Shown here: positions 22,050-45,569 of the stretch, in pieces | Layout of the letters: every line of letters begins with the position of its first letter | Numbering within the stretch: the stretch's first letter is position 1 | NCBI GenBank assembly: GCA_965207885.1 | Contig: OZ242311.1 | Span: forward strand, 5,728,001 to 5,792,000 | Direction of reading: 5' to 3' | DNA from: Candidatus Latescibacterota bacterium | Lineage (GTDB): Bacteria > Latescibacterota > UBA2968 | Length of the DNA stretch: 64,000 nt | The notes under the pieces: model-generated | Told to the model about the DNA's origin: nothing | The model's database searches: none | The model's input: only the letters and a program-made list of their open reading frames with translations | Program-made: the position numbers and the translations under genes

Positions 22050-22152
22050 GAGCAAAATTGCACATCGCGTGCAATTCTACACACTGGCCCGACATGCTGG
22101 TATGGTAGTGGTTTTCTCGTTTTTTATTTACCAAACGTGTGTATATTTGCAC
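22050..22152 (+). promoter_or_regulatory. three candidate enhancer (UAS) sites, GTGCA-N4-TGCAC-like, upstream of cas6
   Basis: GAGCAAAATTGCAC 22050-22063, GTGCAATTCTACAC 22069-22082, GTGTATATTTGCAC 22139-22152; the same motif occurs at 45361-45394. Confidence 0.65.
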
Positions 22153-22251
22153 GATTGAACATATCGTTGTCCATTTCCTGTTTGAAAAAAATATCACACA
22201 ACCTGTTGTTTTTTTTGATCTCTGAGGAAATTCGGAGATTTTTTTTGTGTT

Positions 22252-22267
22252 TGGCACGCGATTTGCA
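22252..22267 (+). promoter_or_regulatory. sigma54 -24/-12 promoter of the cas6-interference operon
   Basis: TGGCACGCGATTTGCA matches TGGCACG-N4-TTGCW exactly, about 50 bp upstream of cas6. Confidence 0.85.
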
Positions 22268-22314
22268 GATACAATGAGAGCTATCGCAAAATTCCAGATA
22301 CAAAGGAGATACTG

Positions 22315-23286
22315 ATGTTTACACTCGAATTCGCGTATATGCGCCTGCATTTCAAGGCGCGAGAGCATTTGCGCCTGCCACCCTATAAAGGCTCCACATT
22401 TCGCGGGGCTTTTGGCGTGGCATTTAAGCGTGCGGTTTGTATTGTGCAACACGGCGAGTGCGAACGGTGCCTGGTTCGGACCCAGTGCGTGTATCCATAC
22501 ATATTTGACACACCTGTAGATAATGCACAGGGCATCTTCCGCGGGTATAGCGAGGCACCCCATCCCTATCTGATCGAACCCCCACTGGAGACCAAAACCG
22601 ATTACACACCGGGCGACGACTTTGCCATTGGTCTGACCCTGATAGGCCGGGTACTGAATTACATGCCCTATTTCATCTATACATTCCAGCGAATGGGAGA
22701 CACAGGTATTGGACGAGGACGCGGCAAATGCGATCTCATTTCAGGCGAAGCACTGCACGCGGATGGAACCTGGCAGGCGGTGTACGACGGAGCGAGCGAA
22801 GTGTTGCAACAAGATGTACCCCATCTGACCGCGCAAGATCTGATACACAACGAAATAGGATCTCGGATTCGCCTCTCATTTGTAACGCCCACACAACTCA
22901 AAGCAGACCGGATATTGCAGCGCGGATTGGATTTTTCCGTGCTCATACGCGGGCTATTGCGGCGGTATTCGGCATTGGCCGCATTTCACGCAGACGGACC
23001 GCCAGATATAAATTATGCCGACTACATCGCGGCGGCAGAGAATATTCAAACCACATCCCACAACTTGACCTGGCGCACATGGCAACGGTATTCAAACCGC
23101 CAGAACCGACGCATGAGCGTGAGTGGTTTTACGGGAGATGTGGTCTTTGAAGGCGACATGACACAATTCCACCCCCTGCTGGCTCTGGGTGTGCCGATGC
23201 ACGTTGGCAAATGGACCAGCTTTGGGATGGGACAATACAAGTTTTATCAATCCACAATCAACCGAATGGATGAACAACATGGGTAA
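22315..23286 (+). CDS. cas6: CRISPR pre-crRNA endoribonuclease Cas6
   Basis: GSTFRGAFG, CxxC region, C-terminal G-loop HVGKWTSFGMG. Confidence 0.9.
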   Translation: MFTLEFAYMRLHFKAREHLRLPPYKGSTFRGAFGVAFKRAVCIVQHGECERCLVRTQCVYPYIFDTPVDNAQGIFRGYSEAPHPYLIEPPLETKTDYTPGDDFAIGLTLIGRVLNYMPYFIYTFQRMGDTGIGRGRGKCDLISGEALHADGTWQAVYDGASEVLQQDVPHLTAQDLIHNEIGSRIRLSFVTPTQLKADRILQRGLDFSVLIRGLLRRYSALAAFHADGPPDINYADYIAAAENIQTTSHNLTWRTWQRYSNRQNRRMSVSGFTGDVVFEGDMTQFHPLLALGVPMHVGKWTSFGMGQYKFYQSTINRMDEQHG

Positions 23287-23629
23287 TCAAGCCAATCAAG
23301 GGTACGATAAATATTATTCTGAAGACAGCTTCTGGAAGAAGTTGCTCAACTTTGCACGCACCGCGGGCCGGGAAGTCGTCGAGAATGCTCTGTCGCTCTA
23401 CTACACTGCCCAGGCACCTGACACACCAACCTGGGCCAAAACGGTCATCACCGGGGCACTGGGGTACTTTATTCTTCCGGCCGATGCAATTCCCGACCTG
23501 ATTCCTGCTGTCGGTTACGGCGATGATCTGGGTGCGCTGGTCGCGGCACTTGCAGCCGTGGCGGCTCATGTGACACCTGAGATCAAAGCCCGCGCAAAAG
23601 AAAAAGCAGCCGAGTGGTTTGGTGAATAA
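23279..23629 (+). CDS. YkvA/DUF1232 family membrane protein
   Basis: ALGYFILPADAIPDLIPAVGYGDD signature. Confidence 0.85.
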   Translation: MGNQANQGYDKYYSEDSFWKKLLNFARTAGREVVENALSLYYTAQAPDTPTWAKTVITGALGYFILPADAIPDLIPAVGYGDDLGALVAALAAVAAHVTPEIKARAKEKAAEWFGE

Positions 23630-23648
23630 ATGGTATAGGAGATGTATC

Positions 23649-24788
23649 ATGCGCTTTGTTCTATCAACCATTGGTACAAGCATCTTGACAAATTTCATCG
23701 ATAAAACAAATTTTGGTGAAGCTAAATGGCAGGGTATGCTACGGGATTCGGCGAATCTCAAACCAGATGAATTATCGCATGAAACTACAGAAGTGATTGA
23801 AACACTCGTTGACCGGGCATTGACGCAACTCCTAAGAGATGATGTAGCTACCAATCGCCGGATTAGTGCCGAATTGAACGGTATCTATGGTATTTATGAA
23901 GGTCAATTGCCTCATAACAGTCGAGACCAGCACTATCTCATCTGCACTGACACTGCCCAGGGACAGAAGACGGGCAAACTGATTCAGGATTTTCTTGAAA
24001 ATAAAGGGTTTGTCGCAGGTATTGTTACGCCTGATAGACTTTCAACACAAGGCCCGGAATCTTTCACCACAGGTACAAAAGACCTTATCCGCTGGCTGGA
24101 GGAAAACGTGCCGTGGCGACGCGATGTGGGCTATCGCGTAATCTTCAATCTCGTTGGTGGCTTCAAAAGCCTACAAGGTTATATGAATACTTTCGGTGCT
24201 TTTTACGCCGATGAGGTCATTTATATATTTGAGGCACCAACTGCTGACTTAATCAAAATTCCGCGTCTGCCAATTCAGATTGATACAACCGTGATTCAAA
24301 ACCATCGGGTGCAATTTGCGATGATGGATGCTGAAAAACTGTATCCTGTTGAGGAACTCGAGGGGATTCCAGAAACACTGCTTGAATTTATAGAAGAGAA
24401 AGGCCAGACTTATGCGGGATTATCGGCGTGGGGCCAGTTGATCTGGAACCTCACGAAATCGGATTTATTGACAAAAAAACTATTGCATTTTCCACGATTG
24501 GGATATGGAAAAACTTTCAGGGATGACTTCGACAATCAGAATGATTCCAGGAAACGTCTTAAACTGCAAGAAACCCTGGCAAGGGTCTCATATCTACTTG
24601 AACAGAACAATGGCAACCGGGCACTGCTTATGCGAGATGGTGGACTGCAATTTGAAAAATTTACCAATAGAGAGAGTATTTACAAATTCCGCATTGATCG
24701 CACTATCCGCGTCAGTTGCTCGGTTTCTGAAGGTGGATTGATCCTTCGGCACTATGGACATAAAAATGTCGTGTACGAAAATCCATAA
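23649..24788 (+). CDS. CARF (APE2256-like) + RelE-like effector, Cami1-like mRNA interferase
   Basis: STIGTS, SAELNG, TDT..G and NLVGGFKS CARF motifs; C-terminal YKFRIDRTIRV...RHYGH resembles RelE. Confidence 0.7.
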   Translation: MRFVLSTIGTSILTNFIDKTNFGEAKWQGMLRDSANLKPDELSHETTEVIETLVDRALTQLLRDDVATNRRISAELNGIYGIYEGQLPHNSRDQHYLICTDTAQGQKTGKLIQDFLENKGFVAGIVTPDRLSTQGPESFTTGTKDLIRWLEENVPWRRDVGYRVIFNLVGGFKSLQGYMNTFGAFYADEVIYIFEAPTADLIKIPRLPIQIDTTVIQNHRVQFAMMDAEKLYPVEELEGIPETLLEFIEEKGQTYAGLSAWGQLIWNLTKSDLLTKKLLHFPRLGYGKTFRDDFDNQNDSRKRLKLQETLARVSYLLEQNNGNRALLMRDGGLQFEKFTNRESIYKFRIDRTIRVSCSVSEGGLILRHYGHKNVVYENP

Positions 24789-24863
24789 AAAGGATAGAAA
24801 GACAATGGATTACCTACACATTATCATATTCTTATCGCTATATACAAAGGAGGTCTTCGCATC

Positions 24864-26483
24864 ATGGCCTGCGAATCGTTTGTCATCGTAATTGATACCC
24901 CTTCTATCAAGAGGTATGTATTTGGAACCGACCCCTTAAATGAGATACGAGGTGCGAGCGCACGTTTAGATTGGCTAAATCGAATCAAAATGGAAGAACT
25001 TTTGTGTGAACACCTCAGTAAGGCAGATGTAAAATCGATTTACGCCAATGGTGGTTCGGCACAGTTTTTAGTTCATGAGAGTGACAACCTCACTGTGAAT
25101 ATGGCCTGTACAAATATGGTTCGGTATATCCGCAATCAAACGGGTGGCGAAGTCCGGGCAGTTTATGGTATCGCACCGCTCAAAGACGAAGCTTCCTATC
25201 AAGAGGCGGTGCATAGGGCACATTTTCAGTTGCGCTGTCAACGCGAATTTGGGACCAGCTACCGCAGTGCGTCTTTAATACCGACCATGATGGAATGTCA
25301 ATCAGCCTCGCATCTGCCCGCGGCTCATATTGTGAATCGAGGCGCAGATGGTATAGGCATGTTATCTAAGGCGAGTTACCAAAAGGAACTGCGGGGGCAT
25401 GAAGCCCGCCGTCATGGACTCTGGGACGGATGGATGGATCACTTGAAAACCACGGGACCGTGGCCAGGAGAGGAGCAGTGGAATAAACTGCGGTGTAAGA
25501 GCATGACAGATATAGGTGACCACTCGTCATGGCGCAACTACATTGGCGTGGTTTATGCCGATGGAAATGCCATGGGACAAATTGTCCAAGCACTCAATCA
25601 TCCAGAGACATTCCGCCAATTTAGCGAAATTGTTGATAATAGCATTCGACAATCATGTTTCACCGCACTCAGCCAAATTTTCCAGACTGAAATCGAAAAC
25701 ATTCGGGAGGCTTTTGAACAAAACCGCCGCTTTGAACACCTTGCCGCCGATATTCTGCTCTTGGGAGGAGATGATTTGCTGGTGGCCGTACCAGCTAACT
25801 CTGCACTCGATTTCGCCTTGAAGGTCACAGAAGAATTTGAACGCTTGACACAAGAGAAAATTGCTGCCCTGAAAGACGCAGAATCTCGGCAGTTCTTCCG
25901 CGACCGACTTGGGGATCGGGGTTTCACAATTTCTTGCGGTGTTGCCATAGCAAAAAGCAACTATCCCTTTTACCTGTCATTGGATCTGGCCGAGCAATTG
26001 TTGAAAAATGCCAAACGGAAAGACAGCTATGGGGCACAACTCGAAACACCCGGTGAAGCTCGCATTGACTTTCATGTTGTGACTGGTGCGAATAGCCATG
26101 CCCTCAAAGAGGTTCGTGAAGAAACCTATCAGATAGCAAGCAATGCACGCCGCACGCTCAGACCCTTGTCTTGCCCCCAGTTGGAATTACTGCACAACAG
26201 TGTACAGAAACTACGCAACGTGAAATTTCCACATAGCAAATTGCACGAACTTCGAGAAGCAGCACTGGCAAAAACGGAGAATCAAGCCGACTGGCGCATT
26301 CGCGACATTTTCGTCCGGTGTCGGCATGATCGAAATAGCTCTGAACGTCGTGCATTGTGGCAAGCGGTGCATAACCTGTGCCCCCAGGGATATACGTTTG
26401 ATTTTCCCTGGTTCATAAAAAATGGCCAACGCCTTCTGTGTGTAGCGGACATAGTGGATATTTACAACTTATTCCGAAAATAG
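24864..26483 (+). CDS. cas10: Cas10, short HD-less form with intact cyclase motif
   Basis: IDTPSIKRYVF...IRGAS, YADGNAMG, LGGDDL, AEQLLKNAK. Confidence 0.9.
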   Translation: MACESFVIVIDTPSIKRYVFGTDPLNEIRGASARLDWLNRIKMEELLCEHLSKADVKSIYANGGSAQFLVHESDNLTVNMACTNMVRYIRNQTGGEVRAVYGIAPLKDEASYQEAVHRAHFQLRCQREFGTSYRSASLIPTMMECQSASHLPAAHIVNRGADGIGMLSKASYQKELRGHEARRHGLWDGWMDHLKTTGPWPGEEQWNKLRCKSMTDIGDHSSWRNYIGVVYADGNAMGQIVQALNHPETFRQFSEIVDNSIRQSCFTALSQIFQTEIENIREAFEQNRRFEHLAADILLLGGDDLLVAVPANSALDFALKVTEEFERLTQEKIAALKDAESRQFFRDRLGDRGFTISCGVAIAKSNYPFYLSLDLAEQLLKNAKRKDSYGAQLETPGEARIDFHVVTGANSHALKEVREETYQIASNARRTLRPLSCPQLELLHNSVQKLRNVKFPHSKLHELREAALAKTENQADWRIRDIFVRCRHDRNSSERRALWQAVHNLCPQGYTFDFPWFIKNGQRLLCVADIVDIYNLFRK

Positions 26484-26497
26484 AGAGGAGTTTACCC

Positions 26498-27235
26498 ATG
26501 AAATCCCAACGCCTAAATTTGTGCTACCACATTATTTGGCAAGGACGCTGGCATGTTGGCAGCGGCTATCAGTCGGCAGTGGCGGACCGCTTGTTGCGAC
26601 GACTACCCAATAATGCACCATTTGTTCCTGGCTCTCAGATCAAAGGTGTTCTGCGCCATCAATGCGAGCGGTTGGCACTGGCCCTTGATCTCAAAGTGAT
26701 CAATCCCCATGCTGGCATTGAAGAAGACGAACAAAATCTGATCAAGCATTTTACGCCGTTAAAAAAATCGGACCTGATGGTCGATAGGTTATTTGGCAGT
26801 CGCTATCAGGGAGAGTGCCTATTTGTGACGAATGCGGTGCCGATGTCGTCTGCAGAGAAAAGTATGACTTCCGTACAGGCACGCACAGCCATTGATCGCG
26901 TCACGGGGACTGTGATGGAACAACACTTGTTTACAACTGAATTGACAGAGGGTGATGTCAACTTGCGAGGAAAAATACGCGCACGGCATCCTGCTGGTGT
27001 TCTGACACAAGATGAAGATGGCTTTCCTTGGGAGTATGCCCTTTTGATAGCAACCCTGCTGTCGCTGGATGCTCTCGGCGGCGATAAGAGTCTTGGCCTC
27101 GGGCGGTGTGAGGTCCAAATCGAACCAGAGTCGTTGTATTGGAACGACCAACGCATTTCGTTAGATGAAGCTCTTCAAAGTTTTCAAGAGGAAGACTGGG
27201 GCGAGTGGGTAGATATTTTGCGTGAGGAGTCATGA
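26498..27235 (+). CDS. Cas7-group RAMP (Csm3-like)
   Basis: WHVGSG, PGSQIKGVLR, TAIDR, GGDKSLGLG. Confidence 0.88.
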   Translation: MKSQRLNLCYHIIWQGRWHVGSGYQSAVADRLLRRLPNNAPFVPGSQIKGVLRHQCERLALALDLKVINPHAGIEEDEQNLIKHFTPLKKSDLMVDRLFGSRYQGECLFVTNAVPMSSAEKSMTSVQARTAIDRVTGTVMEQHLFTTELTEGDVNLRGKIRARHPAGVLTQDEDGFPWEYALLIATLLSLDALGGDKSLGLGRCEVQIEPESLYWNDQRISLDEALQSFQEEDWGEWVDILREES

Positions 27236-28482
27236 TGAGAAAAAAAATACCTTTGACAGCACAATTACTTGCGCCAGTAGCTATCAAACGCGATCGACAA
27301 TCCGAACGTTCTGGAGGCGTGCATTCTATGGCTGGTACGATGGTTCGCGGTGCCCTAGCTGCTCTCTATTTACAGCATCATGGAGAAGTAGATGATACCT
27401 TCAATCATTTGTTCTTAGATGAGAATTCATGTCGATTTGGACCATTGGACCCCGGTCCGCGCTGCTTCCCATTAACTACCGCGGAGTGCAAACGGGAAGG
27501 AATAAAACATGCCCTCGTGGACCAACTGTGGTTTCGGATCGCCCAACACTACCTGACTGGCAGTGTGCCAGATAATGCCGAAACGCCCTGGCGTCAATGT
27601 GACATATGTAAAGCCGACTTGAAGAACCTGAACGGCTTTTGGGAAAAAGAAAACGGTCGTCTGCAGGAAAAAAGTAATGAGCGGCAACAGGTCGCCGCCC
27701 ATGTTGGCATTGACCGTCACACCACCACCGCGGCGGAATCAATATTGTACACCCTTGAAGCCTTACAGCCTTCCGGTCAAGAGGAAGACCTGTACGGCTG
27801 GCTCATGGCTGACGACGATGCGCTTACTGCCTTGAAACAACTCTTGCAGAATGAAGATTACCGCATCTCGGTGGGCCACCATCGCACGCGCGGTTACGGA
27901 GATCTGCGCTTACAGTTGGGCAATCCTGTGGAGAAGAATGATTCACAGCCGCGCATAGAAGATTGGGAACAATGGAGCCGCGATCTGATTGCGTTTCTGA
28001 GTTCACCGCCGCTTTCCATTCCCGATCTCGATCCAGATGATTTTTACTTTAGTTTGTCGTTTCCCACTGGCGCAGTGTTTGTGGACCGCTTTCTGTGTTA
28101 TACTCTCGATCCAGCAGACCTGATTTCATGGTTGTCGCCTATGCCTTCTGCAGATGCCGCGTTTCCAATTCAGAATCGTCCGACCCGACAACTCGCATCA
28201 GGGGGCACAATGTGCTGGATCGCTGCCGTAACCCGACATGAGCGTTTGCGCGGCTGGAATGCAGCTCACGGCTTGCCGCGTCAGGATGAATGGGCCGTAG
28301 TACGAGGGTCAGTCTATGTTTACCGCTTTACAGGCACGGCCACAGAACGCGAGACACTCATTGAACAACTTGCAACCTTGTCCGAAGAAGGCGTCGGTCT
28401 GCGGCGCAATGAAGGCTTTGGCATGGTGATCGTGTCCGATGATTTCCATCGCCAATTTTGCAAACAGGAGGTGCAATCGTGA
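27232..28482 (+). CDS. Cas5-group RAMP (Csx10-like)
   Basis: GTMVRGALA, VGIDR, HRTRGYG, GLRRNEGFG. Confidence 0.8.
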   Translation: MMRKKIPLTAQLLAPVAIKRDRQSERSGGVHSMAGTMVRGALAALYLQHHGEVDDTFNHLFLDENSCRFGPLDPGPRCFPLTTAECKREGIKHALVDQLWFRIAQHYLTGSVPDNAETPWRQCDICKADLKNLNGFWEKENGRLQEKSNERQQVAAHVGIDRHTTTAAESILYTLEALQPSGQEEDLYGWLMADDDALTALKQLLQNEDYRISVGHHRTRGYGDLRLQLGNPVEKNDSQPRIEDWEQWSRDLIAFLSSPPLSIPDLDPDDFYFSLSFPTGAVFVDRFLCYTLDPADLISWLSPMPSADAAFPIQNRPTRQLASGGTMCWIAAVTRHERLRGWNAAHGLPRQDEWAVVRGSVYVYRFTGTATERETLIEQLATLSEEGVGLRRNEGFGMVIVSDDFHRQFCKQEVQS

Positions 28483-28904
28483 TCGTCTTGAACACCGGTT
28501 TGATCCAAAAAGTTGATCTCTACATTGACGAGAACCATAAAACATTTTCAGAACTGGGAGATCGTTTCTTTGACGTATTTAGCTATGACAAACGGAATGA
28601 TCGCATTAATACGCAAATCCGGAATCTGCAACAAATTACCTGCTCCGCTACGCGCTTTGCGGATATCGAAGATTTTGTAAAAAACCAAATGGGAAAAGAA
28701 GAAACTAAAGACCCCAAATGGAAGAAAGTGGGAGACAGCACCTTAAAAAAATTAAAGGAGTTGCGCGACAAAAGCCAGGAATTTGATTCCGATCCCGCTA
28801 ACCAGATGGCACTGCGTCTCCGTCTCGCTCGTGGTTGGGTGCGTGCCGTAGTCAGTCAGTATCTCTATCGCGTTGCATGCGATCAAATGGGAGAGAGGCC
28901 ATGA
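28479..28904 (+). CDS. small helical subunit (Cas11/Csm2-like)
   Basis: Size, position, TQIRNL...FVKNQMGK pattern. Confidence 0.55.
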   Translation: MIVLNTGLIQKVDLYIDENHKTFSELGDRFFDVFSYDKRNDRINTQIRNLQQITCSATRFADIEDFVKNQMGKEETKDPKWKKVGDSTLKKLKELRDKSQEFDSDPANQMALRLRLARGWVRAVVSQYLYRVACDQMGERP

Positions 28905-29422
28905 CATGCGTTGATTTACTATCTGATACCACCTACTGTGAACAGGCTGTTCAACAACTGGATCGACTATTGGGTGACATGAATCAATTCCCCGTAAAGC
29001 GCACGCAGATCTACGGCCTGCGACAAATCGCCCAGCAACAGCCCAGAGAAATTCAAGGATTTGCCAATCATCAGCGCGAGCGTGCCCAGCGCAAGCAGGA
29101 AAACGCCTCCGAAAACACCAAACCGAGATACCAGCCTGAAATCGATTTCTGGGCTCTGGTGGCCGATTTGTGCAGCAATTCGAGTTCTAATTGGTCTGTG
29201 GAAGAGGAAGGACACACCCATCTTCCTGAAGAACTACAAAATATTCCGGCAAGGCGGAAAGGCATGTCACATGAGGAACAACGGTATTTAAACGAACTCA
29301 AGAGGCATCGAAGGGAATTACTCGAACAATGGACAAACGAGCATATTCCAGCGTTTTTTGAACGGTTTTGTACACACGCTTTATACCGCTTGGGAAAGCA
29401 AAAAAACTCGAAAAAGGAGTAA
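28901..29422 (+). CDS. second small helical protein (Cas11-like or ancillary)
   Basis: Overlapping stop/start within the operon; RTQIYGL...FANHQRER pattern. Confidence 0.5.
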   Translation: MTCVDLLSDTTYCEQAVQQLDRLLGDMNQFPVKRTQIYGLRQIAQQQPREIQGFANHQRERAQRKQENASENTKPRYQPEIDFWALVADLCSNSSSNWSVEEEGHTHLPEELQNIPARRKGMSHEEQRYLNELKRHRRELLEQWTNEHIPAFFERFCTHALYRLGKQKNSKKE

Positions 29423-29425
29423 AAC

Positions 29426-30277: not shown

Positions 30278-30279
30278 CC

Positions 30280-32916: not shown

Positions 32917-33015
32917 CGGCAGGAATTACTCTTGAAAACAGCCCCAAACCAGTAGGGTGACCCGTGTCATCCCTTGATGATAGACGGCGGAATTGGTTTA
33001 TAGAAAGGTAAGCAT

Positions 33016-34287: not shown

Positions 34288-34301
34288 TTTGTAAAAAGAT
34301 G

Positions 34302-34339
34302 ATCAGGATGTATTACCCGGCATTGTGGCCGATCTCAAC
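34302..34339 (+). repeat. degenerate CRISPR repeat just after the last cas gene
   Basis: ATCAGGATGTATTACCCG matches 16 of the first 18 nt of the repeat; the 3' half has decayed. Confidence 0.55.
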
Positions 34340-36501: not shown

Positions 36502-38898
36502 GTAGGGTAGGCTGCTGGCGAGTTACCCAAAGGCACTTTTCCATCAGCCCCCCTCCGAACCGGACGTGATAGTTTCCCATCATCCGGCTCTCCAGTAACT
36601 TTCACCGTTTTGAGGTCGGCCCGCCTCGATGGATGTTGATATGACAGCTTTTACAGACGACAAGTGTTTTTCTGCGTCTTGCTGCCATTTTATGTTTCCA
36701 TCTTGGCTTTTTCTTCCTTCCCGGCTTGTCCACATCCGTTAGTTTGCGTATGTGGTGAACTTCTACTTCTTGCCGAGAACCACATAATTCACATTCTGAT
36801 GCCGTTAAGCGTTGTATTAGCTCGCTACGACTCCAGTATGGTTTTATGTCTTTCAGGCCGTCCTTGATTACCGCGTTCTCTGTGTTGCGTATTAAGGGAA
36901 CCCCTCCAAAGTATGCGATTAGGGGCTTTTTACCTTCTCTTTCTACGGTTACTTGTATGCATTTTCGTGGGCCTCTTGGGGTAATTACTTTACCCTTATA
37001 TTTCCTTGCCGTTTTTCTCACTTGCGATTTGTGTTTATTCGCAAGTGTCTTTAGCAGGGACGTTTGTATGACCCATTCCAATTTGCTCAGTCTCCGTATG
37101 TTGTTTGCGAGTTGGTAGTATTGCACAAAGCCTCTATATTCCCTTTGATAGCGGGATATGATGTCAAAGTCGCTGTCCTGTAACAATTGTGGTCGCGCCT
37201 CTGGCTTCCCGTTTCTCATATAGGTATTGCATCTCGCATCACTTACATCTTTGGGGATGTATAAGCCGAGTCTTCCATTAATGGCCCTTTTCTTAATGTA
37301 GCTGTCCATTTGTGTGTTACTGAAATATCCCTTGATTTCGTATCCTAAAAATCTGGCTCTTTCGGTGGTTACGTGGGTTATTAGGGTCTTTTCTTCTGAA
37401 AGTTCGAGCTTCATATCTTGCAGGAATTTCTTTAGAATTGACTTAATTCCCCTTGCTTCCATTTTGGAGCCTACTAATCCTATTAGGAAGTCGTCAGCGT
37501 ATCTTATGTAGTATATTCTTTTGAAATCGGGGTCGTCTTGGAGTGAGCAGGGTATTTTCTGCATCTTCTGTCTATACTCCTTTGCTTCTTCAAATCGACC
37601 TTTCTTTTTCAGGTGATATACTTTGTTAATCAGATACCTGTATTCAGGGTTTTTCTTTCGGCTTTTTCCTTTTGTGAATAGAGATTTGAGGGTGTTTTCA
37701 ACAAATTTATCCAGTCTATCGAGGTAGATATTTGAGAGTATCGGGCTTACGATTCCCCCTTGTGGCGTTCCGCTCAAGGTGGGTGTGTAATTCCAATTCT
37801 CCATATATCCTGCTTTGAGTAGATTGGATATTAACCGCAGAAATCGGTTGTCTCGGATTTTCTCTCGGAGTATTGATAGTAAGATTTGGTGGTCTATATT
37901 ATCGAAGCACCCCTTAATATCTCCTTCGACAAACCATTTCGTTCCGTTCCACTTTTTGACTGCTTGTAATGCCGTGTGACAGCCTTTATTTGGTCGGAAC
38001 CCGTGAGACAAGCTGCTAAATTGCGGTTCATAATACGCTTCTAATATGGAGCGTATTACTTCCTGCACAAGTTTGTCTGTCCACGTAGGAATGCCTAACG
38101 GTCGCATTTTACCGTTTTTCTTTGGTATATGTGTCCGTCTCACTGGAGTCCATCTGAAGCGTTCATAGCGTATTTGTTCTATGATTGCTTTAATTTTCTT
38201 CAGTGACATTCCATCAACGGTTTCTTCCGTTATACCTTTGGTCATTGCGCCTTTGTTGCGTTGAATGCGACTGTAGGCCCGCAGGTATAGATCGGGGTTG
38301 AACATTTGTCGATAAACGTCTTCAATGGGTAATCCTCTTAAACCTCGATTTCGGATGATACCTAATACTGTTTCGGCGTCTCGCATCTCGCGTGCCTCCT
38401 GTATTATTGTATCCAGTTACCTGTTTTCCTTCGCCTTGTGGACGGCTTTCCCGTCCTCTGACTACTATGAAAACTCCGTTACCATAGGACTCGCGTCCCG
38501 TAGGCAATCCCGTGTTTTTCTGTTGTGGTCTGTATTAGTGTGGGTTAGGTAGTCCACTCATTCCTTAAATGAGCTACATTGCTCATCGTTGGCAGTTCCA
38601 AAGGTTATGGGAAAGCATTGGTTAATTTCCCATAAAACTGATACCGGTATCGGACGACTTTCCGGTAGGGCGAAGCGACCGTCCTTCTGGAATTGGACTT
38701 CGGGCAGTTTAGCTCTTACCATACCACACAGGTCTTGCGGAGCAAATGTTTTTGTCGCCTTCTCTACATTCTCCGCTTTACGAATATGCTATTTTCCCTT
38801 TCGCCTTTCGGTTCCGGTTGATTCGTTGACCTATGGACGTTCCTTTGAGTCCATCCTGATTTAGTCAGGAATACCACATCAGACGCTACACGGCGCAC
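36502..38898 (-). mobile_element. group II intron (IIA, Ll.LtrB-like), apparently complete, 2397 bp
   Basis: 5' GTGCG at 38898; domain V GAGCCGGATGATGGGAAACTATCACGTCCGGTTC; domain VI ending CCTACCCTAC at 36502; EBS1 loop at 38616-38621. Confidence 0.93.
36602..38386 (-). CDS. intron-encoded reverse transcriptase/maturase with HNH endonuclease (LtrA-like)
   Basis: RPLGIP, HGFRP, GDIKGCFDNI, GTPQGG, RYADD, FLG; C-terminal CELC...HH...CKSCH. Confidence 0.95.
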   Translation of the reverse strand: MRDAETVLGIIRNRGLRGLPIEDVYRQMFNPDLYLRAYSRIQRNKGAMTKGITEETVDGMSLKKIKAIIEQIRYERFRWTPVRRTHIPKKNGKMRPLGIPTWTDKLVQEVIRSILEAYYEPQFSSLSHGFRPNKGCHTALQAVKKWNGTKWFVEGDIKGCFDNIDHQILLSILREKIRDNRFLRLISNLLKAGYMENWNYTPTLSGTPQGGIVSPILSNIYLDRLDKFVENTLKSLFTKGKSRKKNPEYRYLINKVYHLKKKGRFEEAKEYRQKMQKIPCSLQDDPDFKRIYYIRYADDFLIGLVGSKMEARGIKSILKKFLQDMKLELSEEKTLITHVTTERARFLGYEIKGYFSNTQMDSYIKKRAINGRLGLYIPKDVSDARCNTYMRNGKPEARPQLLQDSDFDIISRYQREYRGFVQYYQLANNIRRLSKLEWVIQTSLLKTLANKHKSQVRKTARKYKGKVITPRGPRKCIQVTVEREGKKPLIAYFGGVPLIRNTENAVIKDGLKDIKPYWSRSELIQRLTASECELCGSRQEVEVHHIRKLTDVDKPGRKKKPRWKHKMAARRRKTLVVCKSCHINIHRGGPTSKR

Positions 38899-39588
38899 CT
38901 AATGAGGCTTTGGGTAGATCGTTCACACCCAATCAGGAAGAATTACCCGCTTATTGGGGTATTGAAACTTCGATGCGGGAGCGACCAGCGGCTTGAATCT
39001 TAACAACTGATCAGGAAGAATTACCCGCTTATTGGGGTATTGAAACTATTGCGAGAGAAGATGTTCGCAGATCGAAAGATCCATCAGGAAGAATTACCCG
39101 CTTATTGGGGTATTGAAACTCGAGCTTGACGATGCGCTCTTCGTGGTTGGCGAGACGATCAGGAAGAATTACCCGCTTATTGGGGTATTGAAACGCGTCA
39201 AGGTCTCTGCGTATCTGGTCGAAATTGTCCTCGGATCAGGAAGAATTACCCGCTTATTGGGGTATTGAAACAAATATACTGCACACCACAAGCAGAGCAT
39301 CTCAAAAGTGCATCAGGAAGAATTACCCGCTTATTGGGGTATTGAAACCCGCGGACAGCGAGCGCAAAATCGTCGCAGTCGCTTCTGATCAGGAAGGATT
39401 ACCCGCTTACTGGGGTATTGAAACAATAGCTTGCGGATACACACAGCAAACTCGTTGTAATCATCAGGAAGGATTACCCGCTTACTGGGGTATTGAAACG
39501 AAACTGTCTTACTTTTTTACTTCGGGAATGATTTTGGGATCAGGAAAGATTACCTGTTTACAAAAAGAAAAAGGAGAGGAAACAAGTG

Positions 39589-39809: not shown

Positions 39810-39932
39810 TATGCAGTGTAAAATTGAAATACAGAAAGGAATCTCCTTTTAGTAGTTATTTCCCAGAGTATTCAACTGCTTAGACACTCAGACACCTTCA
39901 TTGTCCGAACTCTATCCGATAAGGGTAATATC

Positions 39933-42062
39933 ATGAATAAAATAGTCTCAAGAATCTCCAGATACTTCAGAAGATGGTATGATGAAATCAAGTTGCAGCA
40001 AGTCCTTAAAGAATGCTGTCACGTAGCGCGCGAAGGATACCGGATTGCAAGTGCCAACCTTGATGAAATCAAGATCACTATAGACGGAGAAGTTTCGAAA
40101 TTGAAATCACACCTGGCAACTTTGAATAATGAGAATATCCAAACAGACCACATTGAACAACAGATACAAAAACAACTACAACAAGTGGTGTCAGAACTCG
40201 GCTCTTTGCACAAAAGCCAAGTGCGCCTTCTGGAAGAGAAACACTCACAAATGGACAAATTTTCAATTGCCCTCTTTGGTCGCACACTGGCTGGTAAATC
40301 AACATTGATGGAAATTTTGACCAAAGGCGATGGTTCATCCATCGGAAAGGGAAACCAACGCAATACCCGAGATGTGCGTAGCTACGACTGGAAAGGACTT
40401 AAAATCACTGATGTCCCCGGCGTAGCTGCATCTGACGATGAAGGCCGTGAGGACGAAGAAAAAGCATTCGAGGCGGCTGTGCAGTCGGACCTGGTGCTTT
40501 TCCTCATCACCAACGATGCGCCCCAGGACTCAGAAGCAAGGTGCCTCGCACGCGTGCGATCACAAGGCAAGTCGATTCTGGGTATCTTGAATTTTAAAGA
40601 GGGTCTCAACAATGAGGACGATATACGAATTTTCTTGCGAGATAACTGGTTCAAAAATGATCGGCAGGATATCCACGACATCGTTCAACAGTTCCACGAA
40701 TCTGTGAACAAATATAGCCCGGGGAATCGGATCAGGTTCCTTTATACCCATTTGCTATCGAGATTCCTATCTCAACAGCCGCAGTACAAATCGCACCAGA
40801 ATAATTTGGAACGCGCAAGCCGCTTCGACTATGTCGAACAGCAAATTATATCGGAGGTAATTAACCGGGGAAGATTCCTGAAATGGAAGAGCTTTATCGA
40901 CATTTCCGTAGTTCCAATGCTTGAATTTAGCGATAAATTATTGGAGTTTAGTGCCCAGAACTCATCCAGTGGTAGAATTTTCCTTGGCAAAAGGGACCAG
41001 ACCCAATCATGGTCTGATGGATTTAGCAAAAGTGGCAAAGAACGCATTGATACGTTTATAAAAAAAGAAATGAACTTGCTGCGTGATGAAATTCCGGGAT
41101 TTGCGGAGACCTATTATGACCGATCTAATGCTGGCGATCGCTGGAACCGCTTAGTCAAAAAGCAAGGCATAGAGCGGAAAGCAAAAAAACTTGCTGAACA
41201 GATCCAGAATGAATGTAAATCTGAACTGTCAGAGATTGCACGACAACTTAAATTTGCACTGAATTCCGTCGGTAAATTTGCTGATGATCGCAAAATTAGC
41301 ATGGATTCTATATTCGATACAAAACGCGCCTGGAATTGGGGGACTACAATTCTTTCGGGTGGTCTTGGTATTGCTGCTCTCATTCTTGGTAGCGGTCCTA
41401 TCGGCTGGGTTGCGGCAGCAGTTGCGGGATTAGGGCGCTTGATATCATGGCTTTTAGGTGACCGCGAAAAAAAAGCGAGAAAGCAACGCAAAAAACTCGA
41501 AAAGATGCTCAATAGCGAAGTCAACAAGATAGAAAGTAATATTCGAAAACAGCTCAATGATTGGTTTCAGGGTGTACTGAAAAATCAAGTCGCTGTCCTT
41601 ATCAAAGACCTCTCTACTACCACATCGAATCTCTTCAAGCTGGCAGATGTACAAAGAACTCTGGCCTGGGCACTCAACAAAGGACAGAAACGTCTCCACC
41701 GCGATCTACTCAATGAAGCACTCGATCAACTTGGACAAAAAGATAAAGGGAACCTCATATTAGATATAGCGCGAGTACCAGGACTGGCAATTATGTTATT
41801 GATAGAGCCTAAAACTACATTTCCAAAGGACGTACGCAGGAATTTAGAAAAAATACTTGGAGAAAAGGTTTGGTTCGTAGTCAATACCCGTAACAAAACC
41901 TCAATTCTGGCGCAGGCTATTGGGCACGACTGTGATCGAAGCAAAGTTCGTATCAAATCAAAAATTCAAGTTGCCCATGTTCCGGTAGGAGACCTTAATG
42001 CAGTTGGTATTTCTCGAATCAGACTAGCGCAACAACTGACCGAACTCCATGTGATGAAGTAA
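39933..42062 (+). CDS. dynamin-like/TRAFAC GTPase (LeoBC-like) with coiled coils and hydrophobic hairpin
   Basis: G1 GRTLAGKST, G3 DVPG, G4-like NFKE; hydrophobic ILSGGLGIAALILGSGPIGWVAAAV. Confidence 0.7.
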   Translation: MNKIVSRISRYFRRWYDEIKLQQVLKECCHVAREGYRIASANLDEIKITIDGEVSKLKSHLATLNNENIQTDHIEQQIQKQLQQVVSELGSLHKSQVRLLEEKHSQMDKFSIALFGRTLAGKSTLMEILTKGDGSSIGKGNQRNTRDVRSYDWKGLKITDVPGVAASDDEGREDEEKAFEAAVQSDLVLFLITNDAPQDSEARCLARVRSQGKSILGILNFKEGLNNEDDIRIFLRDNWFKNDRQDIHDIVQQFHESVNKYSPGNRIRFLYTHLLSRFLSQQPQYKSHQNNLERASRFDYVEQQIISEVINRGRFLKWKSFIDISVVPMLEFSDKLLEFSAQNSSSGRIFLGKRDQTQSWSDGFSKSGKERIDTFIKKEMNLLRDEIPGFAETYYDRSNAGDRWNRLVKKQGIERKAKKLAEQIQNECKSELSEIARQLKFALNSVGKFADDRKISMDSIFDTKRAWNWGTTILSGGLGIAALILGSGPIGWVAAAVAGLGRLISWLLGDREKKARKQRKKLEKMLNSEVNKIESNIRKQLNDWFQGVLKNQVAVLIKDLSTTTSNLFKLADVQRTLAWALNKGQKRLHRDLLNEALDQLGQKDKGNLILDIARVPGLAIMLLIEPKTTFPKDVRRNLEKILGEKVWFVVNTRNKTSILAQAIGHDCDRSKVRIKSKIQVAHVPVGDLNAVGISRIRLAQQLTELHVMK

Positions 42063-42081
42063 CTCAGAAAGGAATCATTTA

Positions 42082-43818
42082 ATGAAAGAAATACATATCC
42101 ATTCATATACAAAAAAAGGAGAGTGTCTGCTTGAGAGAGCAAAACAGGTTCTCCAAGATGCACCTGTCGATAAGGTACGGAACTTTGCACAACGGGTTCC
42201 AAGAGGAATGGCAACTTCTGAAGAAGCCGTTCAGGTAGTCTTTGCCGGTCAATACAGTGCAGGTAAGTCTTCAATTCTCAAGGCAATGACGGGACAAGAA
42301 GATATCGAGATAGGAGCTGGGATTACGACTCGACGGACACAACAGTTTGACTGGAATGGAATCAGAGTAGTGGATACGCCGGGTGTCCATACGGAGTTAC
42401 GACCCGACCATGACAAAATAACGTACGGGGCAATCAGTAAAGCCGACCTCCTGATCTTTGTTATTACCAATGAATTATTTGACTCCCATATAGCAACACA
42501 TTTTAGAAAACTTGCAATTGATCGGGATAAAGCCCATGAAATGCTGTTGGTTGTGAACAAGATGCAGCGATGTGACAAGGGAAATACATCAGCGGCTCAG
42601 GATGTAATTCGGGAAGACCTTCGAAAAGATCTATTGCCCTTCTCTCCAGAACAACTTCGTATATCTTTCTTGGATGCTGAAGACGCTCTCAAGATCCGCA
42701 CAGAGCAGGACGAAGAATACCGCAGAATCTACCATAAAAGAAGTGGTTTTGATGCCTTCATCGATAATTTCAATGCGTTTATTAAAGAAAAGGAATTAAT
42801 CGCACGTTATACAACACCGCTCTACACCCTCGAACAAGTACTACAAGAGGCCCTCGCAGTCGAGCCGAGCGATGACCCTGATGTGGATGCCCTACAAGAG
42901 TTATTAATTCAGCAAAGACGCGCATTATTGGATAGTAAAGCACAGATTTCTCAATCAGTAAAAAATAAAGTCCAACAGACAACAAACAAGATTCGGGAGG
43001 AAGGTCGCAATGTTGCTGATCTGATTCGTGGAAATTCGGACTTTGAGAAAGTTGATCGGGAATTAACGGCTGCCCAAGAGCGCGTTCAAGAATATGTGGA
43101 TTCATTGACGGAACTCGTTCAAGAAACAGTTGAAGAGCATATTAGCGATCTCGCTGAGCGGATAGAGCAAATCGCGGAGAGCGAACTCGCCAAAGAGTTA
43201 CTATCGAGGCTTATAGAAAGACTCCAAGGTCTCAATGTTGATCCAGAGACTCTATCTAAGGTAAAAAAGGGCGCAGATTTCGCCAGCCGATTTGGGAAAT
43301 TCCTCGTTAAGAACTCGTTTAATCCTACGACCTCGACATTTTCCGGATTGTTCAAACTCCACCAGTATTCGGGTACAGCAATGCACGGCATGGTCAAAAA
43401 TATAGGACATTTCTTAGGAAAGTCCTTTAAGCCTTGGGAAGCAGTAAAATGGACGCGTACAATCGCAAATGCTGGTCGAGTTTTGAGCGTAGTAGGCACT
43501 GTTCTAACCATTGTGTTTCAAATTAAAGAAGACGCCGATGCTGCTAATTTAGAACAGGAATTGCGCGAAAGCCGAACTGCTGTAAGGGCGGGATTTAGTG
43601 AGGCCGCCAGTGCAATTGAACTCCATTTTGATGAAGCAACCAACACTTATGTAGCCAAAACCATTGGTCAGCGTCTCGAAGAGGTAGATAAGCAACTTGA
43701 GGAACTCAGAGATATGAAGCAATCTCGTAGCGATCTCTTTCAACAACTCAATGGCCTATTAGAAGATACGAAGGAGCTTATCTCGGAAATGCATGTGTCG
43801 TATAACCCCCATGAATGA
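42082..43818 (+). CDS. dynamin-like GTPase (LeoA-like)
   Basis: G1 GQYSAGKSS, G3 DTPG, G4 NKMQ; long helical stalk with paddle-like segment. Confidence 0.72.
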   Translation: MKEIHIHSYTKKGECLLERAKQVLQDAPVDKVRNFAQRVPRGMATSEEAVQVVFAGQYSAGKSSILKAMTGQEDIEIGAGITTRRTQQFDWNGIRVVDTPGVHTELRPDHDKITYGAISKADLLIFVITNELFDSHIATHFRKLAIDRDKAHEMLLVVNKMQRCDKGNTSAAQDVIREDLRKDLLPFSPEQLRISFLDAEDALKIRTEQDEEYRRIYHKRSGFDAFIDNFNAFIKEKELIARYTTPLYTLEQVLQEALAVEPSDDPDVDALQELLIQQRRALLDSKAQISQSVKNKVQQTTNKIREEGRNVADLIRGNSDFEKVDRELTAAQERVQEYVDSLTELVQETVEEHISDLAERIEQIAESELAKELLSRLIERLQGLNVDPETLSKVKKGADFASRFGKFLVKNSFNPTTSTFSGLFKLHQYSGTAMHGMVKNIGHFLGKSFKPWEAVKWTRTIANAGRVLSVVGTVLTIVFQIKEDADAANLEQELRESRTAVRAGFSEAASAIELHFDEATNTYVAKTIGQRLEEVDKQLEELRDMKQSRSDLFQQLNGLLEDTKELISEMHVSYNPHE

Positions 43819-43835
43819 CTTGAGATTGTCTTAAG

Positions 43836-44173
43836 TCAAGAAAGGATTACCCGACTACTGGGGTATTGAAACTCATCACCGAGACGTTCTTTGGTTGAAT
43901 ACTTCCCTTCGAATCAGGAAAGATTACCCGACTACTGGGGTATTGAAACGTATCTGTCACCATTACGATATAGTTGTTTCCATCGGCAATCAGGAAGGAT
44001 TACCCGCTTACTGGGGTATTGAAACCAGACCTCAGCAGCTTCGTTTGCATCAACGACGATTATCAGGAAGGATTATCCGACTACTGGGGTATTGAAACAT
44101 GTCCGCCTCGCAGAAGTTCATCTCGTTCATCTTCCGAAGATCAGGAAGAAATTACCCGACTACTGGGGTATTT
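43836..44173 (+). CRISPR. second array segment: 5 variant repeats (first and last degenerate), 4 spacers
   Basis: Repeats at about 43836, 43913, 43989, 44062 and 44140; the 43989 copy is identical to main-array repeats 32-33. Confidence 0.9.
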
Positions 44174-44291
44174 ACCATTTTTAGGGTTGTGCTTGTAGTG
44201 TAGCCTCAGATTCTCTATCTTTTGAATAGATCTTAATACAGAATACAGAGGATGTGCGTCCAACCACGATATGCTATGGGAGGAGATGCCA

Positions 44292-44555
44292 ATGAACCAG
44301 CTAACATTAAGCGGATTTGACAAAGAATTGACCGATAGAATCCGGCATTTCGCAAACCAGGAGGGTATTTCGCTAAATCAAGCCGCGTTGAGACTTCTGC
44401 GCGTTGGGGCCGGTCTCAAGCAATCAAAGGATAGCGGCGACACCGTTGGATCTTCCCTGGACCATCTAATTGGAACCTGGACGGTCGAGGAAGCTGAGGT
44501 ATTGAATAATGCCGTAAAAGAATTGGAACAAATTGACGAGTCTATGTGGAAATGA
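44292..44555 (+). CDS. FitA/VapB-like antitoxin
   Basis: MNQLTLSGFD...A..EGISLN RHH pattern; GTW...ID...WK; overlaps the vapC start. Confidence 0.75.
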   Translation: MNQLTLSGFDKELTDRIRHFANQEGISLNQAALRLLRVGAGLKQSKDSGDTVGSSLDHLIGTWTVEEAEVLNNAVKELEQIDESMWK

Positions 44556-44950
44556 AAATTCTCCTTGACACCAATGCGTATTCACATCTGAAGCGAGGGC
44601 ATCGCAGGGTTGCGGCGTTAGTACGCATGTCCGAGGAAATTTTCCTGTCAGCTATTATCATTGGCGAATTGCTCTACGGCTTTCGGCAAGGCTCGCGCAT
44701 TGACCGGAATATTGAGGAACTTAAAGCCTTCCTCAACAACCCCTATGTCACATTTGTACCTATAAGTTTCGCAACAGCCGAACATTACGCGCAGATTGCA
44801 ATGTCGTTGAGAACCAAGGGGCGTCCCATCCCGTCAAACGACATTTGGATCGCTGCTCAAGCAATGGAGACAGGTGCCAATCTCGTTTCGTCTGATCAGC
44901 ATTTTTCAGAAATTGATGGTCTCGCGTGGACATACGTCTCGACTGAATAA
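44552..44950 (+). CDS. vapC: VapC PIN toxin
   Basis: LLDTNAY, GELLYG, GRPIPSNDIWIAA, SSDQHF. Confidence 0.9.
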   Translation: MKILLDTNAYSHLKRGHRRVAALVRMSEEIFLSAIIIGELLYGFRQGSRIDRNIEELKAFLNNPYVTFVPISFATAEHYAQIAMSLRTKGRPIPSNDIWIAAQAMETGANLVSSDQHFSEIDGLAWTYVSTE

Positions 44951-44978
44951 CATTTTCCTTTTCTAACAAAAATGAATC

Positions 44979-45233
44979 ATGACAAAGCCAAAACTATATG
45001 AAGAAGTGGCAATAGCGCGCAACATACCGGAAGAAAATCTAAAACAGGGTGATGTTGCTGTCGTGGTCGAATATGTACCGCATCCTACGGGTGGAGAAGA
45101 AGGAGCAATTTTAGAGATTTTTAATGCCATTGGCGAATCCGTCGCTGTGGTCACAGTGCCTATCTCTGCGATTAAATCGCTACATGCTGATCAAGTACTG
45201 ATGGTGCGTGAGAGAACGCCTGCAAAATTTTAG
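44979..45233 (+). CDS. DUF4926-like small protein
   Basis: LKQGDVAVVVE...LEIFNAIGESVAVVTV. Confidence 0.7.
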   Translation: MTKPKLYEEVAIARNIPEENLKQGDVAVVVEYVPHPTGGEEGAILEIFNAIGESVAVVTVPISAIKSLHADQVLMVRERTPAKF

Positions 45234-45349
45234 ATCAGGAAGGATTACCCGACTACTGGGGTATTGAAACCTTTCGCTTGACTAATAATAATATAATATA
45301 AAACCCTTCCGAATCAGGAAGGATTACCCGACTACTGGGGTATTGAAAC
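45234..45349 (+). CRISPR. mini-array: 2 variant repeats, 1 AT-rich spacer
   Basis: ATCAGGAAGGATTACCCGACTACTGGGGTATTGAAAC at 45234 and 45313. Confidence 0.88.
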
Positions 45350-45360
45350 TGTGCCTGGAT

Positions 45361-45394
45361 GTGCATTTTTGCACGGATGCGTGCATTTCTGCAC
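45361..45394 (+). promoter_or_regulatory. tandem candidate enhancer sites GTGCA-N4-TGCAC
   Basis: GTGCATTTTTGCAC 45361-45374 and GTGCATTTCTGCAC 45381-45394, about 105 bp upstream of the -24 box. Confidence 0.7.
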
Positions 45395-45499
45395 GCCTGT
45401 TTTCCTCTGGTGAACGCCTATTTGAGATCTTTTTGCAAAAAAAACCTCGAAAAAGGAACAAAAAAAGAAAATCCTCATTTTTTTGAGGATTTTTTTCTT

Positions 45500-45515
45500 T
45501 GGCACGCTTTTTGCA
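45500..45515 (+). promoter_or_regulatory. sigma54 -24/-12 promoter of the CAPP-cas1-cas2 operon
   Basis: TGGCACGCTTTTTGCA matches the consensus exactly. Confidence 0.85.
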
Positions 45516-45531: not shown

Positions 45532-45569
45532 GTCAGGAAGGATTACCCGATTTATTGGGATCGTGAAAT
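45532..45569 (+). repeat. degenerate CRISPR repeat at the predicted transcription start
   Basis: GTCAGGAAGGATTACCCGATTTATTGGGATCGTGAAAT. Confidence 0.65.

Follow-up and report, generated by a model that had tools for sequence, protein, structure and literature searches.

How might a bacterial type III CRISPR-Cas system bring both its interference genes and its adaptation genes under the control of infection? The known bacterial effectors of cyclic oligoadenylate are mostly nucleases, proteases, membrane proteins, and deaminases, and, to our knowledge, infection sensing has so far been tied to spacer acquisition only for Csa3a of archaeal type I-A systems. The question is raised by a CRISPR locus of a Candidatus Latescibacterota bacterium, an uncultured sponge-associated organism. 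There, the gene for an activator that joins a CARF domain to a bacterial enhancer-binding protein (CARF-bEBP) accompanies two predicted sigma54 promoters, P1 ahead of the interference operon and P3 ahead of the adaptation operon. The stretch analyzed, here called the window, comprises 64 kb (positions 5,728,001-5,792,000 of the single 6.23-Mb contig OZ242311.1, assembly GCA_965207885.1), and its features are listed in Table 1. The uniqueness of the promoter motifs in this genome and their conservation between genomes strongly support a regulatory link of the activator to both operons; the sensing of an infection probably turns the two on at the same time.

A reading of the window made from its letters alone (the sequence-only reading) had reported perfect -24/-12 boxes at P1 and P3. 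Both boxes do match exactly what we take to be the sigma54 consensus, TGGCACG-N4-TTGCW (GG at -24 and GC at -12; TGGCAC-N5-TTGC). These two exact matches in the window compare with 0.06 expected, and two were reached in 0 of 100 shuffles; with up to one mismatch allowed, the same two were found against 0.80 expected, and 23 of 100 shuffles reached that number. The palindrome GTGCA-N4-TGCAC had also been read correctly, as an exact pair at 45361 and 45381 and as imperfect copies, each with one mismatch, at 22050, 22069, and 22139, with tandem spacings of 20 and 19 bp. At up to one mismatch, the window holds seven palindromes against 2.24 expected (seven reached in 1 of 100 shuffles). Five of them lie in the intergenic regions upstream of P1 and P3, and the remaining two (43373 and 45842) are intragenic. 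The sites had been placed about 100 bp upstream of the boxes. They are upstream, but the distance was given loosely, since the palindromes start 113, 183, and 202 bp before the P1 box and 119 and 139 bp before the P3 box. Shared words of 7-9 nt between the two upstream regions were confined to the half-sites, the flanks of a hairpin and T run, and the -24 element and, therefore, the regions are not duplicates of each other.

A motif that is common genome-wide without sigma54 boxes had been named beforehand as a possible refutation, and a scan of the 6,228,721 bp did not refute the finding. Four exact palindromes were found, compared to 6.2 expected from base composition, along with 132 one-mismatch sites; thus, single sites are not enriched genome-wide. 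Tandem pairs, defined as palindromes starting 15-30 bp apart, occurred twice, precisely at P1 and P3, whereas about 0.05 would be expected by chance (estimated from 136 sites in 6.23 Mb). The genome contains 26 strict sigma54 boxes and 103 sigma54-like boxes, which retain GG and GC and have at most one mismatch. Only 2 of the 103 are preceded by a palindrome at a distance of 60-260 bp, namely P1 with three sites and P3 with two, against about 0.45 by chance. The spacers of the other two exact palindromes are rich in G+C, and no sigma54-like box follows either of them at 60-260 bp; one of these off-locus sites is inside another enhancer-binding protein gene. A profile search of the genome gave one rpoN match (PF04552, 196 bits) in a 496-aa open frame.

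Forty-one related genomes were searched, and three further genomes were drawn from a genome collection. Since related genomes are non-independent samples, the co-occurrence of motif and activator is given without a statistic. A full-length CARF-bEBP orthologue was found in 8 of the 41, counting this genome (G000), and the other 33 match the AAA+ part only. The exact tandem pattern occurred at six places in four of the 41 genomes, always in the CARF-bEBP locus, and all four carry the activator. It was absent from the 33 genomes without a full-length orthologue, and a reversed control pattern gave no match. Eleven genomes have sequence beyond the orthologue, and in all 11 a sigma54 box (up to one mismatch) follows the gene; in most genomes the sites begin within about 20 bp of the activator stop codon. 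Tandem sites and a P3 box followed by the primase-cas1-cas2 genes were seen in 4 of 6 complete loci (G000, G017, G019, and G020). In G015, the adaptation module has decayed and P3 was not found, and G008 has no adaptation genes within the 60 kb examined.

Twenty promoters from 11 related Latescibacterota genomes were lined up, and 17 of them carry a total of 39 sites with at most one mismatch. The consensus was GTGCA, four A/T-rich bases, and TGCAC, with tandem sites spaced 19-21 bp apart. The proximal site lies 111-113 bp from the box in the P1/P2 class, which comprises promoters like P1 and those called P2 in the relatives (L032 is an outlier at 103 bp), and 118-122 bp from it in the P3 class. 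The distal tandem sites of P1 are kept at the same distance in G015, G019, G020, and L033. A/T tracts between sites and box, which the sequence-only reading had also pointed out, were borne out by an A+T content of 64-78% over the 110 bp that precede each of the 20 boxes. An IHF-like site stands 53 bp before the box at 16 of 16 P1/P2-type promoters (2 perfect, 14 with one mismatch) and at none of the 4 P3-type promoters, with WATCAANNNNTTR taken as the IHF consensus. The same line-up scan found no IHF-like site at P3 in this genome, where A tracts occur instead.

Identity of cas6 and of the promoter cassette is 90-94% across genomes whose effector genes differ: the cas10 gene of G020 is 26% identical to the one here, and tblastn gave nothing above 60 bits for G019, G008, and G017. 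Two clades of the activator can be told apart, the second comprising the orthologues of G017, G008, L033, L035, L036, and L038, with 57-65% identity in the CARF domain, about 42% in the AAA+ domain, and variable HTH tails. Conservation of the cassette despite differing effectors and such distant AAA+ clades argues that it travels as a unit, and the two clades suggest domain swapping. In two relatives (L033:1300-1401 and L039:10001-10123), short extra copies of the first 34-41 activator codons (73-79% identity) were also noticed, several kb ahead of the complete gene.

This genome has a second CRISPR-Cas locus (G000:C1:4078500-4095000), which contains cas6-primase-cas1-cas2, csm6, and a Cas10 with the GGDD motif. 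Neither a CARF-bEBP, nor a sigma54 box, nor tandem sites were found at this locus; it has one lone palindrome with one mismatch. No array was seen in the 38 kb examined there. To judge from its genes and motifs, the second locus is an internal negative control for the link between motif and activator. The enhancer-binding protein encoded nearby is of the ordinary REC-PAS type, stands ahead of a fatty-acid hydroxylase gene, and is unrelated.

Next, the domains of the activator were considered. Its CARF domain spans residues 12-222, with a match to PF09623 (Cas_NE0113) at residues 19-222 (1.4e-34; 120.2 bits, cut-off 23), and the NCBIfam model TIGR02584 gave 167.6 bits (cut-off 80.65). The sigma54-interaction AAA+ domain follows at residues 268-426 (PF00158, 2.8e-49; 167.5 bits, cut-off 20.2), with the Walker A motif GPTGSGKD and the Walker B motif LFLDEI. 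An AAA lid (residues 435-507, PF25601) and a Fis-type HTH_8 domain (residues 522-561, PF02954) complete the protein. Membership in the RtcR family was ruled out because the RtcR model NF038308 scored 241.5 bits against a cut-off of 650 and covered residues 231-545 (the AAA+ part) only, and because the neighbors are cas genes, not rtcBA. The Csa3 family was ruled out as well, since its members have a winged HTH directly after the CARF domain and no ATPase, whereas here an AAA+ module with its lid separates the CARF domain from a Fis-type HTH. The sequence-only reading had proposed that the palindromes are operators of this adjacent activator. The link is backed by the comparison between genomes, by rpoN, and by the domain architecture, but the binding itself is something that we infer.

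The CARF domain resembles sensors of CRISPR signals. Its signature motifs, GNTPQ after strand 1 (general form G-x-[ST]-P) and GGRK after strand 4 (GG-x-K/R), align with those of the cyclic tetraadenylate (cA4) ring nuclease 7z55, and in an alignment of 26 family members P20, Q21, and G131-K134 are invariant and T19 is kept in at least 90%. A structure model built on this alignment (pLDDT, the predicted local distance difference test, 86.8; pTM, the predicted template modeling score, 0.82) was compared with the PDB using Foldseek. There were 31 matches with E ≤ 0.001, and the top ones were Sis0455, Sso2081, Cad1, Card1, Csm6, and Cam1, all CRISPR CARF proteins solved with cA4 or cyclic hexaadenylate (cA6). 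In the Cad1 entries, the CARF dimers are arranged as a hexamer, which is the geometry needed by an AAA+ ring. A protein search with the CARF part gave 159 matches, and most of the 120 listed carry PF09623, PF00158, the lid, and HTH_8; clusters that combine PF09623 with PF00158 number more than 100. The fusion of CARF, AAA+, and HTH is common in the protein collection but unnamed: the few listed fusion proteins with a source name go by nothing more than "CRISPR-associated protein (TIGR02584 family)" or Csx14. The fused homologue furthest from the activator, P0108, was used to scan metagenomes, but this line was set aside, because all 80 loci kept matched the AAA+/HTH part only (query residues 172 onward) and were generic enhancer-binding proteins.

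These features can be assembled into a possible mechanism. The CARF-bEBP would be made constitutively from its own sigma70-like promoter, and its Fis-type HTH would bind the tandem GTGCA-N4-TGCAC sites, two helical turns apart, at the unlinked P1 and P3. By analogy with RtcR, the CARF domain would hold the AAA+ module off. When the type III complex meets target RNA, Cas10 with its GGDD motif would make cyclic oligoadenylate, which the CARF dimer would bind; the AAA+ ring would then assemble or be released, and ATP hydrolysis would open the sigma54 closed complexes, aided at P1 by the IHF-like bend. P1 would then express cas6, the type III-D effector, and the Csx1 and Csm6 RNases, and P3 would simultaneously express the terminal repeat and primase-cas1-cas2. 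The result would be a positive-feedback, infection-gated switch for immunity and memory. Cyclic oligoadenylate is taken as the ligand because the CARF domain is of the CRISPR type, its nearest folds bind cA4 or cA6, and the Cas10 of the locus is cyclase-competent. We regard it as reasonably probable that the CARF-bEBP controls P1 and P3 through the palindromes and is relieved by cyclic oligoadenylate upon target sensing, co-inducing the interference and adaptation operons.

Several observations weigh against this account, and the other explanations draw on some of them. None of the P1 palindromes is perfect in this genome, 3 of the 20 promoters have variant half-sites (AGGCA/TGCCT or CTGCA/TGCAG), and no clear pattern of covariation between HTH sequence and half-site variants was seen among the orthologues compared. 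It could be that the palindromes are bound by another factor, either a repressor or one of the roughly 27 enhancer-binding proteins of the genome, and that their closeness to the CARF-bEBP gene is incidental. There are 27 strong PF00158 matches in the genome (E ≤ 1e-45) among the 35 listed, with the CARF-bEBP ranking 26th, and inverted repeats containing TGCA are, as general background, frequent targets of Fis-type HTH domains. However, motif and gene strictly co-occur in the 41 genomes searched, the sites stay close to the activator stop codon, and tandem sites or sites upstream of a sigma54-like box occur nowhere else in this genome, which makes such an outside factor very improbable. Other points concern the protein. 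Its sigma54-contact loop is NAFTGA, which differs from GAFTGA at the first G and retains F, T, G, and A; close orthologues have GAFTGA, GAFTNA, NAFTNA, or GAFTDA, and the second clade has GAYTGQ and variants. The closest folds of the CARF model are ring nucleases, which is also the NCBIfam name for TIGR02584, so the domain might degrade the signal instead of, or besides, transducing it. Oligoadenylates do not activate RtcR, so far the only CARF-bEBP to have been studied, and its CARF domain binds RtcA/RtcB (PMC9650030). A rather unlikely explanation, in our view, is that the activator does control P1 and P3 via the palindromes but responds to a protein partner rather than to cyclic oligoadenylate from target sensing, or has ring-nuclease activity as its main role. 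Yet its CARF domain belongs to the CRISPR type and not to the RtcR type, with the RtcR model reaching only the AAA+ part. The K/R-containing motif after strand 4, described as a mark of nucleotide ligands (PMC4012209), is invariant in the 26 family members aligned. In the loci compared, the surroundings of the activator gene are in every case those of a type III system whose Cas10 has GGDD.

The position of P3 raises a different doubt. P3 lies inside the end of the second array: its sites begin just past the last regular repeat, which ends at 45349, and a degenerate terminal repeat follows its box. In G017, G019, and G020, the P3 box is directly followed by a near-perfect repeat, a spacer, and a degenerate repeat. 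Between the degenerate repeat and the primase gene, an element TTGACA-17-TAnTTT is conserved in 4 of 4 genomes and could give basal, activator-independent expression; adaptation may, therefore, not depend on P3 alone. P3 might even be mainly an internal array promoter for the terminal repeat-spacer, with the adaptation genes expressed chiefly from the sigma70-like element and acquisition not gated by the activator. Yet in this genome no spacer is left behind P3, and still its box and both of its sites are perfect. No terminator-like site was found on the + strand between the P3 box and the primase gene. The sigma70-like element fell below the threshold of the promoter scan, which reported a weaker site at 45611-45640 instead. 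In G015, a single case, decay of the adaptation module goes with a P3 that was not found. We consider a mainly array-serving P3 clearly unlikely. Two further points count against co-induction by the CARF-bEBP as a whole. Since cas10 and all effectors lie behind P1 (P1/P2 in relatives), leaky expression or an external source of signal would be required; one speculation is that the second type III locus, with its GGDD Cas10, supplies the first signal. Also, a sequence search of sequencing runs listed 23 with the sequence, mostly sponge metagenomes, and none was recorded as RNA.

The proposed activator was compared to known systems. RtcR is a CARF-AAA+-HTH activator of the rtcBA RNA-repair operon, in which the CARF domain is a repressive sensor and the promoter has an upstream activating sequence, an IHF site, and a -24/-12 box (PMC9650030; PMC4012209). 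The three-part architecture and this promoter logic are common to RtcR and the CARF-bEBP. However, the CARF-bEBP has a CRISPR NE0113-family CARF domain and cas operons as targets, whereas RtcR has a divergent CARF domain, rtcBA as its target, and no CRISPR link. Csa3a and Csa3b are CARF factors that bind cA4 and activate adaptation and CRISPR/interference genes via palindromic promoter sites (PMC4333418, PMC5587795, PMC8699464, PMC8844856), and so resemble the CARF-bEBP as proposed here in being CARF regulators that turn on adaptation genes. They differ in being direct winged-HTH factors, mostly of archaeal type I-A systems, with no AAA+ domain or sigma54, in contrast to the proposed ATP-driven opening of sigma54 promoters in a bacterial type III-D system. 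In a bacterial type III system, CalpL-CalpT-CalpS converts cA4 into a transcriptional response via an alternative sigma factor (PMC11229360; PMC12751052). There, a SAVED-Lon protease cleaves an anti-sigma factor and frees a sigma factor like those of the extracytoplasmic function class, whereas here a single CARF-bEBP would act on sigma54 with cas genes as targets.

Stand-alone NE0113/Csx14-type CARF proteins and Crn1 share the CARF family, the signature motifs, and the closest folds with the CARF-bEBP. The former have no AAA+ fusion (the unfused relatives found are about 380 aa), and Crn1 degrades cA4 and does not signal. The adaptation operon also has a known counterpart, as CRISPR-associated primase-polymerases (CAPPs) are likewise archaeo-eukaryotic primases encoded directly upstream of cas1-cas2 (PMC8211822). 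The best Pfam match here, though, is a TOTE-type primase domain with N-terminal TPR repeats.

A literature search found no fusion of a CRISPR-type CARF domain with a sigma54 activator, and no sigma54 control of type III or of cas1/adaptation genes; a 2020 CARF classification, which may mention the fusion, and supplements were outside its coverage. A 2014 CARF survey predicted that NE0113 proteins are transcription regulators and treated sigma54-linked CARF proteins as an RtcR-like, non-CRISPR family (PMC4012209). A 2024 census of type III systems set transcription factors aside for later study (PMC11229360), so the CARF-sigma54 class may simply not have been looked at. If the proposed mechanism is true, the direct coupling of a CARF domain to sigma54 would add a second route from signal to transcription, and a simpler one, and spacer acquisition would be tied to infection sensing in a type III system. 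The sequence-only reading had gone further and spoken of priming. This was an overstatement, as nothing here would steer new spacers to the target that was sensed; what can be supported is that infection induces the adaptation genes, as reported for Csa3a in Sulfolobus (PMC4333418). With no more than one protein, a 14-bp site, and two promoters as its defined components, the proposal lends itself to direct tests in E. coli or in vitro despite the uncultured host.

A bolder proposal, which we find doubtful, is that the CARF-bEBP represents a new class of type III effector that converts cyclic oligoadenylate into ATP-driven sigma54 promoter opening. The whole III-D system, its toxic RNases, and the adaptation genes would stay silent until infection, with either leaky complexes or the second, unregulated type III locus, in the role of a sentinel, as the origin of the initial signal. 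The degenerate repeat comes right after the predicted start at 45526 and, therefore, the adaptation transcript would begin with a Cas6 recognition element. In this proposal, the cas1-cas2 mRNA would itself be a Cas6 substrate, coupling the processing of CRISPR RNA to memory formation.

Table 1. Features of the CARF-bEBP locus, in window coordinates
Feature	Positions	Strand	Remarks
Sigma70-like promoter ahead of activator gene, TTGAAA-16-TATACT	20282-20309	+	10/12 consensus matches; consensus match only
CARF-bEBP gene	20325-22031	+	CARF, sigma54 AAA+, lid, HTH
Distal tandem enhancer sites of P1, GAGCAAAATTGCAC and GTGCAATTCTACAC	22050-22082	.	Putative; starts 19 bp apart
Proximal enhancer site of P1, GTGTATATTTGCAC	22139-22152	.	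Putative; 113 bp before box
IHF-like bending site of P1	22199-22211	-	One mismatch to WATCAANNNNTTR; 53 bp before box
Terminator-like hairpin and T run abutting -24 element of P1	22217-22250	+	Terminator scan
P1 sigma54 -24/-12 box, TGGCACGCGATTTGCA	22252-22267	+	Consensus match, 0 mismatches; predicted start ~22278
Interference operon	22315-34287	+	Profile matches; predicted extent; type III-D-like
cas6	22315-23286	+	Interference operon
DUF1232 protein gene	23189-23629	+	Interference operon
Csx1-like CARF protein gene	23619-24788	+	Interference operon
Cas10 gene	24864-26483	+	Interference operon; GGDD present, no HD domain, 539 aa
Csx10, Csx7, and other RAMP protein genes	Between cas10 and csm6 genes	+	Interference operon
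Csm6 gene	33016-34287	+	Interference operon
Degenerate repeat (34303-34339) and leader of main array	34303-34641	+	Conserved
Main CRISPR array	34642-39499	+	25 + 8 repeats; split by group II intron
Group II intron in main array	36502-38386	-	Open reading frame (ORF) for RT-maturase-HNH 36602-38386; domain V/VI RNA 36502-36592 (Rfam Intron_gpII)
Second array, variant repeat	43836-45349	+	Last regular repeat 45313-45349; interrupted by inserted genes
Insert in second array	44271-45233		Small ORF and PIN-domain ORF (toxin-antitoxin-like pair), DUF4926 gene; repeat truncated at ~44140-44175
Tandem enhancer sites of P3, GTGCATTTTTGCAC and GTGCATTTCTGCAC	45361-45394	.	Putative; perfect, starts 20 bp apart; 139/119 bp before box
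A/T-stem hairpin and T run abutting -24 element of P3	45468-45499	+	Scan called - strand; stem symmetrical, T-rich sequence on + side
P3 sigma54 -24/-12 box, TGGCACGCTTTTTGCA	45500-45515	+	Consensus match, 0 mismatches; predicted start ~45526
Degenerate terminal CRISPR repeat	45532-45568	+	12 mismatches to repeat; ~6 nt after predicted P3 start
Sigma70-like element, TTGACA-17-TACTTT	45578-45606	+	Between P3 and primase gene; read by eye; below scan threshold; possible basal promoter
Adaptation operon	45663-48932	+	primase-cas1-cas2; predicted extent
TPR and archaeo-eukaryotic primase-polymerase gene	45663-47630	+	PF22548 3e-46; start codon uncertain
cas1	47617-48633	+	PF01867 1.5e-100
cas2	48651-48932	+	PF09827 8.7e-24

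The interference operon belongs to a type III-D-like system that, judging by its genes, should signal via cyclic oligoadenylate. The Csx10 model TIGR02674 matched with an E-value of 8.4e-40 but scored below its cut-off, and the Csx7 model TIGR02581 gave 132.8 bits (cut-off 108). In relatives, cas6 and the DUF1232 gene are separated by a third promoter, with tandem sites, an IHF-like site, and a box in the same design as P1. In this genome, a clean deletion of about 200 bp (23238-23270, compared to L014:5845-6200 and L023:5750-6145) has removed this promoter together with the cas6 stop codon and fused the cas6 and DUF1232 genes; P1 alone must, therefore, drive the 12-kb operon. A consensus scan found no sigma70-like promoter in the P1 region. 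The hairpin and T run at P1 probably insulate it from read-through of the activator gene, and the corresponding structure at P3, which would shield that box from read-through as well, is a possible terminator for the upstream array. The DUF1232 protein (about 123-146 aa, 71-91% identity) is the first gene product behind the regulated promoter in every relative, even in those with different effectors.

A sigma54 promoter for the main array was also considered and rejected, since no box is present in the leader of about 260 bp, strongly conserved though it is in 6 genomes; no sigma70 match was found in it at the scan threshold. The degenerate repeat upstream of the leader is conserved in 5 of 6 aligned genomes. 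The regular repeat folds as a 5-bp hairpin, and the degenerate repeat keeps a short stem, with z-scores that are not significant. Apart from the group II intron, an Rfam scan gave no matches. The two arrays are separated by a pair of genes for dynamin-like GTPases (709 and 578 aa) at 39933-43818. Only about 20 bp separate the stop codon of the second GTPase gene from the start of the second array, which, therefore, has no leader of its own. In G019, the same gene end as in the insert of the second array here stands directly before a partial repeat and P3.

Among the strict sigma54 boxes elsewhere in the genome, several (for example, at 836192, 1257234, 1328068, 2028426, 4180815, 4325479, and 4491237) have in common an extended sequence, CAC-N-TTGGCACGGATATTGCAT or one closely similar to it. 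Many of the other enhancer-binding protein genes lie in open frames of about 1600 aa. Some of the extended boxes are near enhancer-binding protein genes in open frames of about 1070-1130 aa, and these boxes may belong to a separate, multi-copy sigma54 system.

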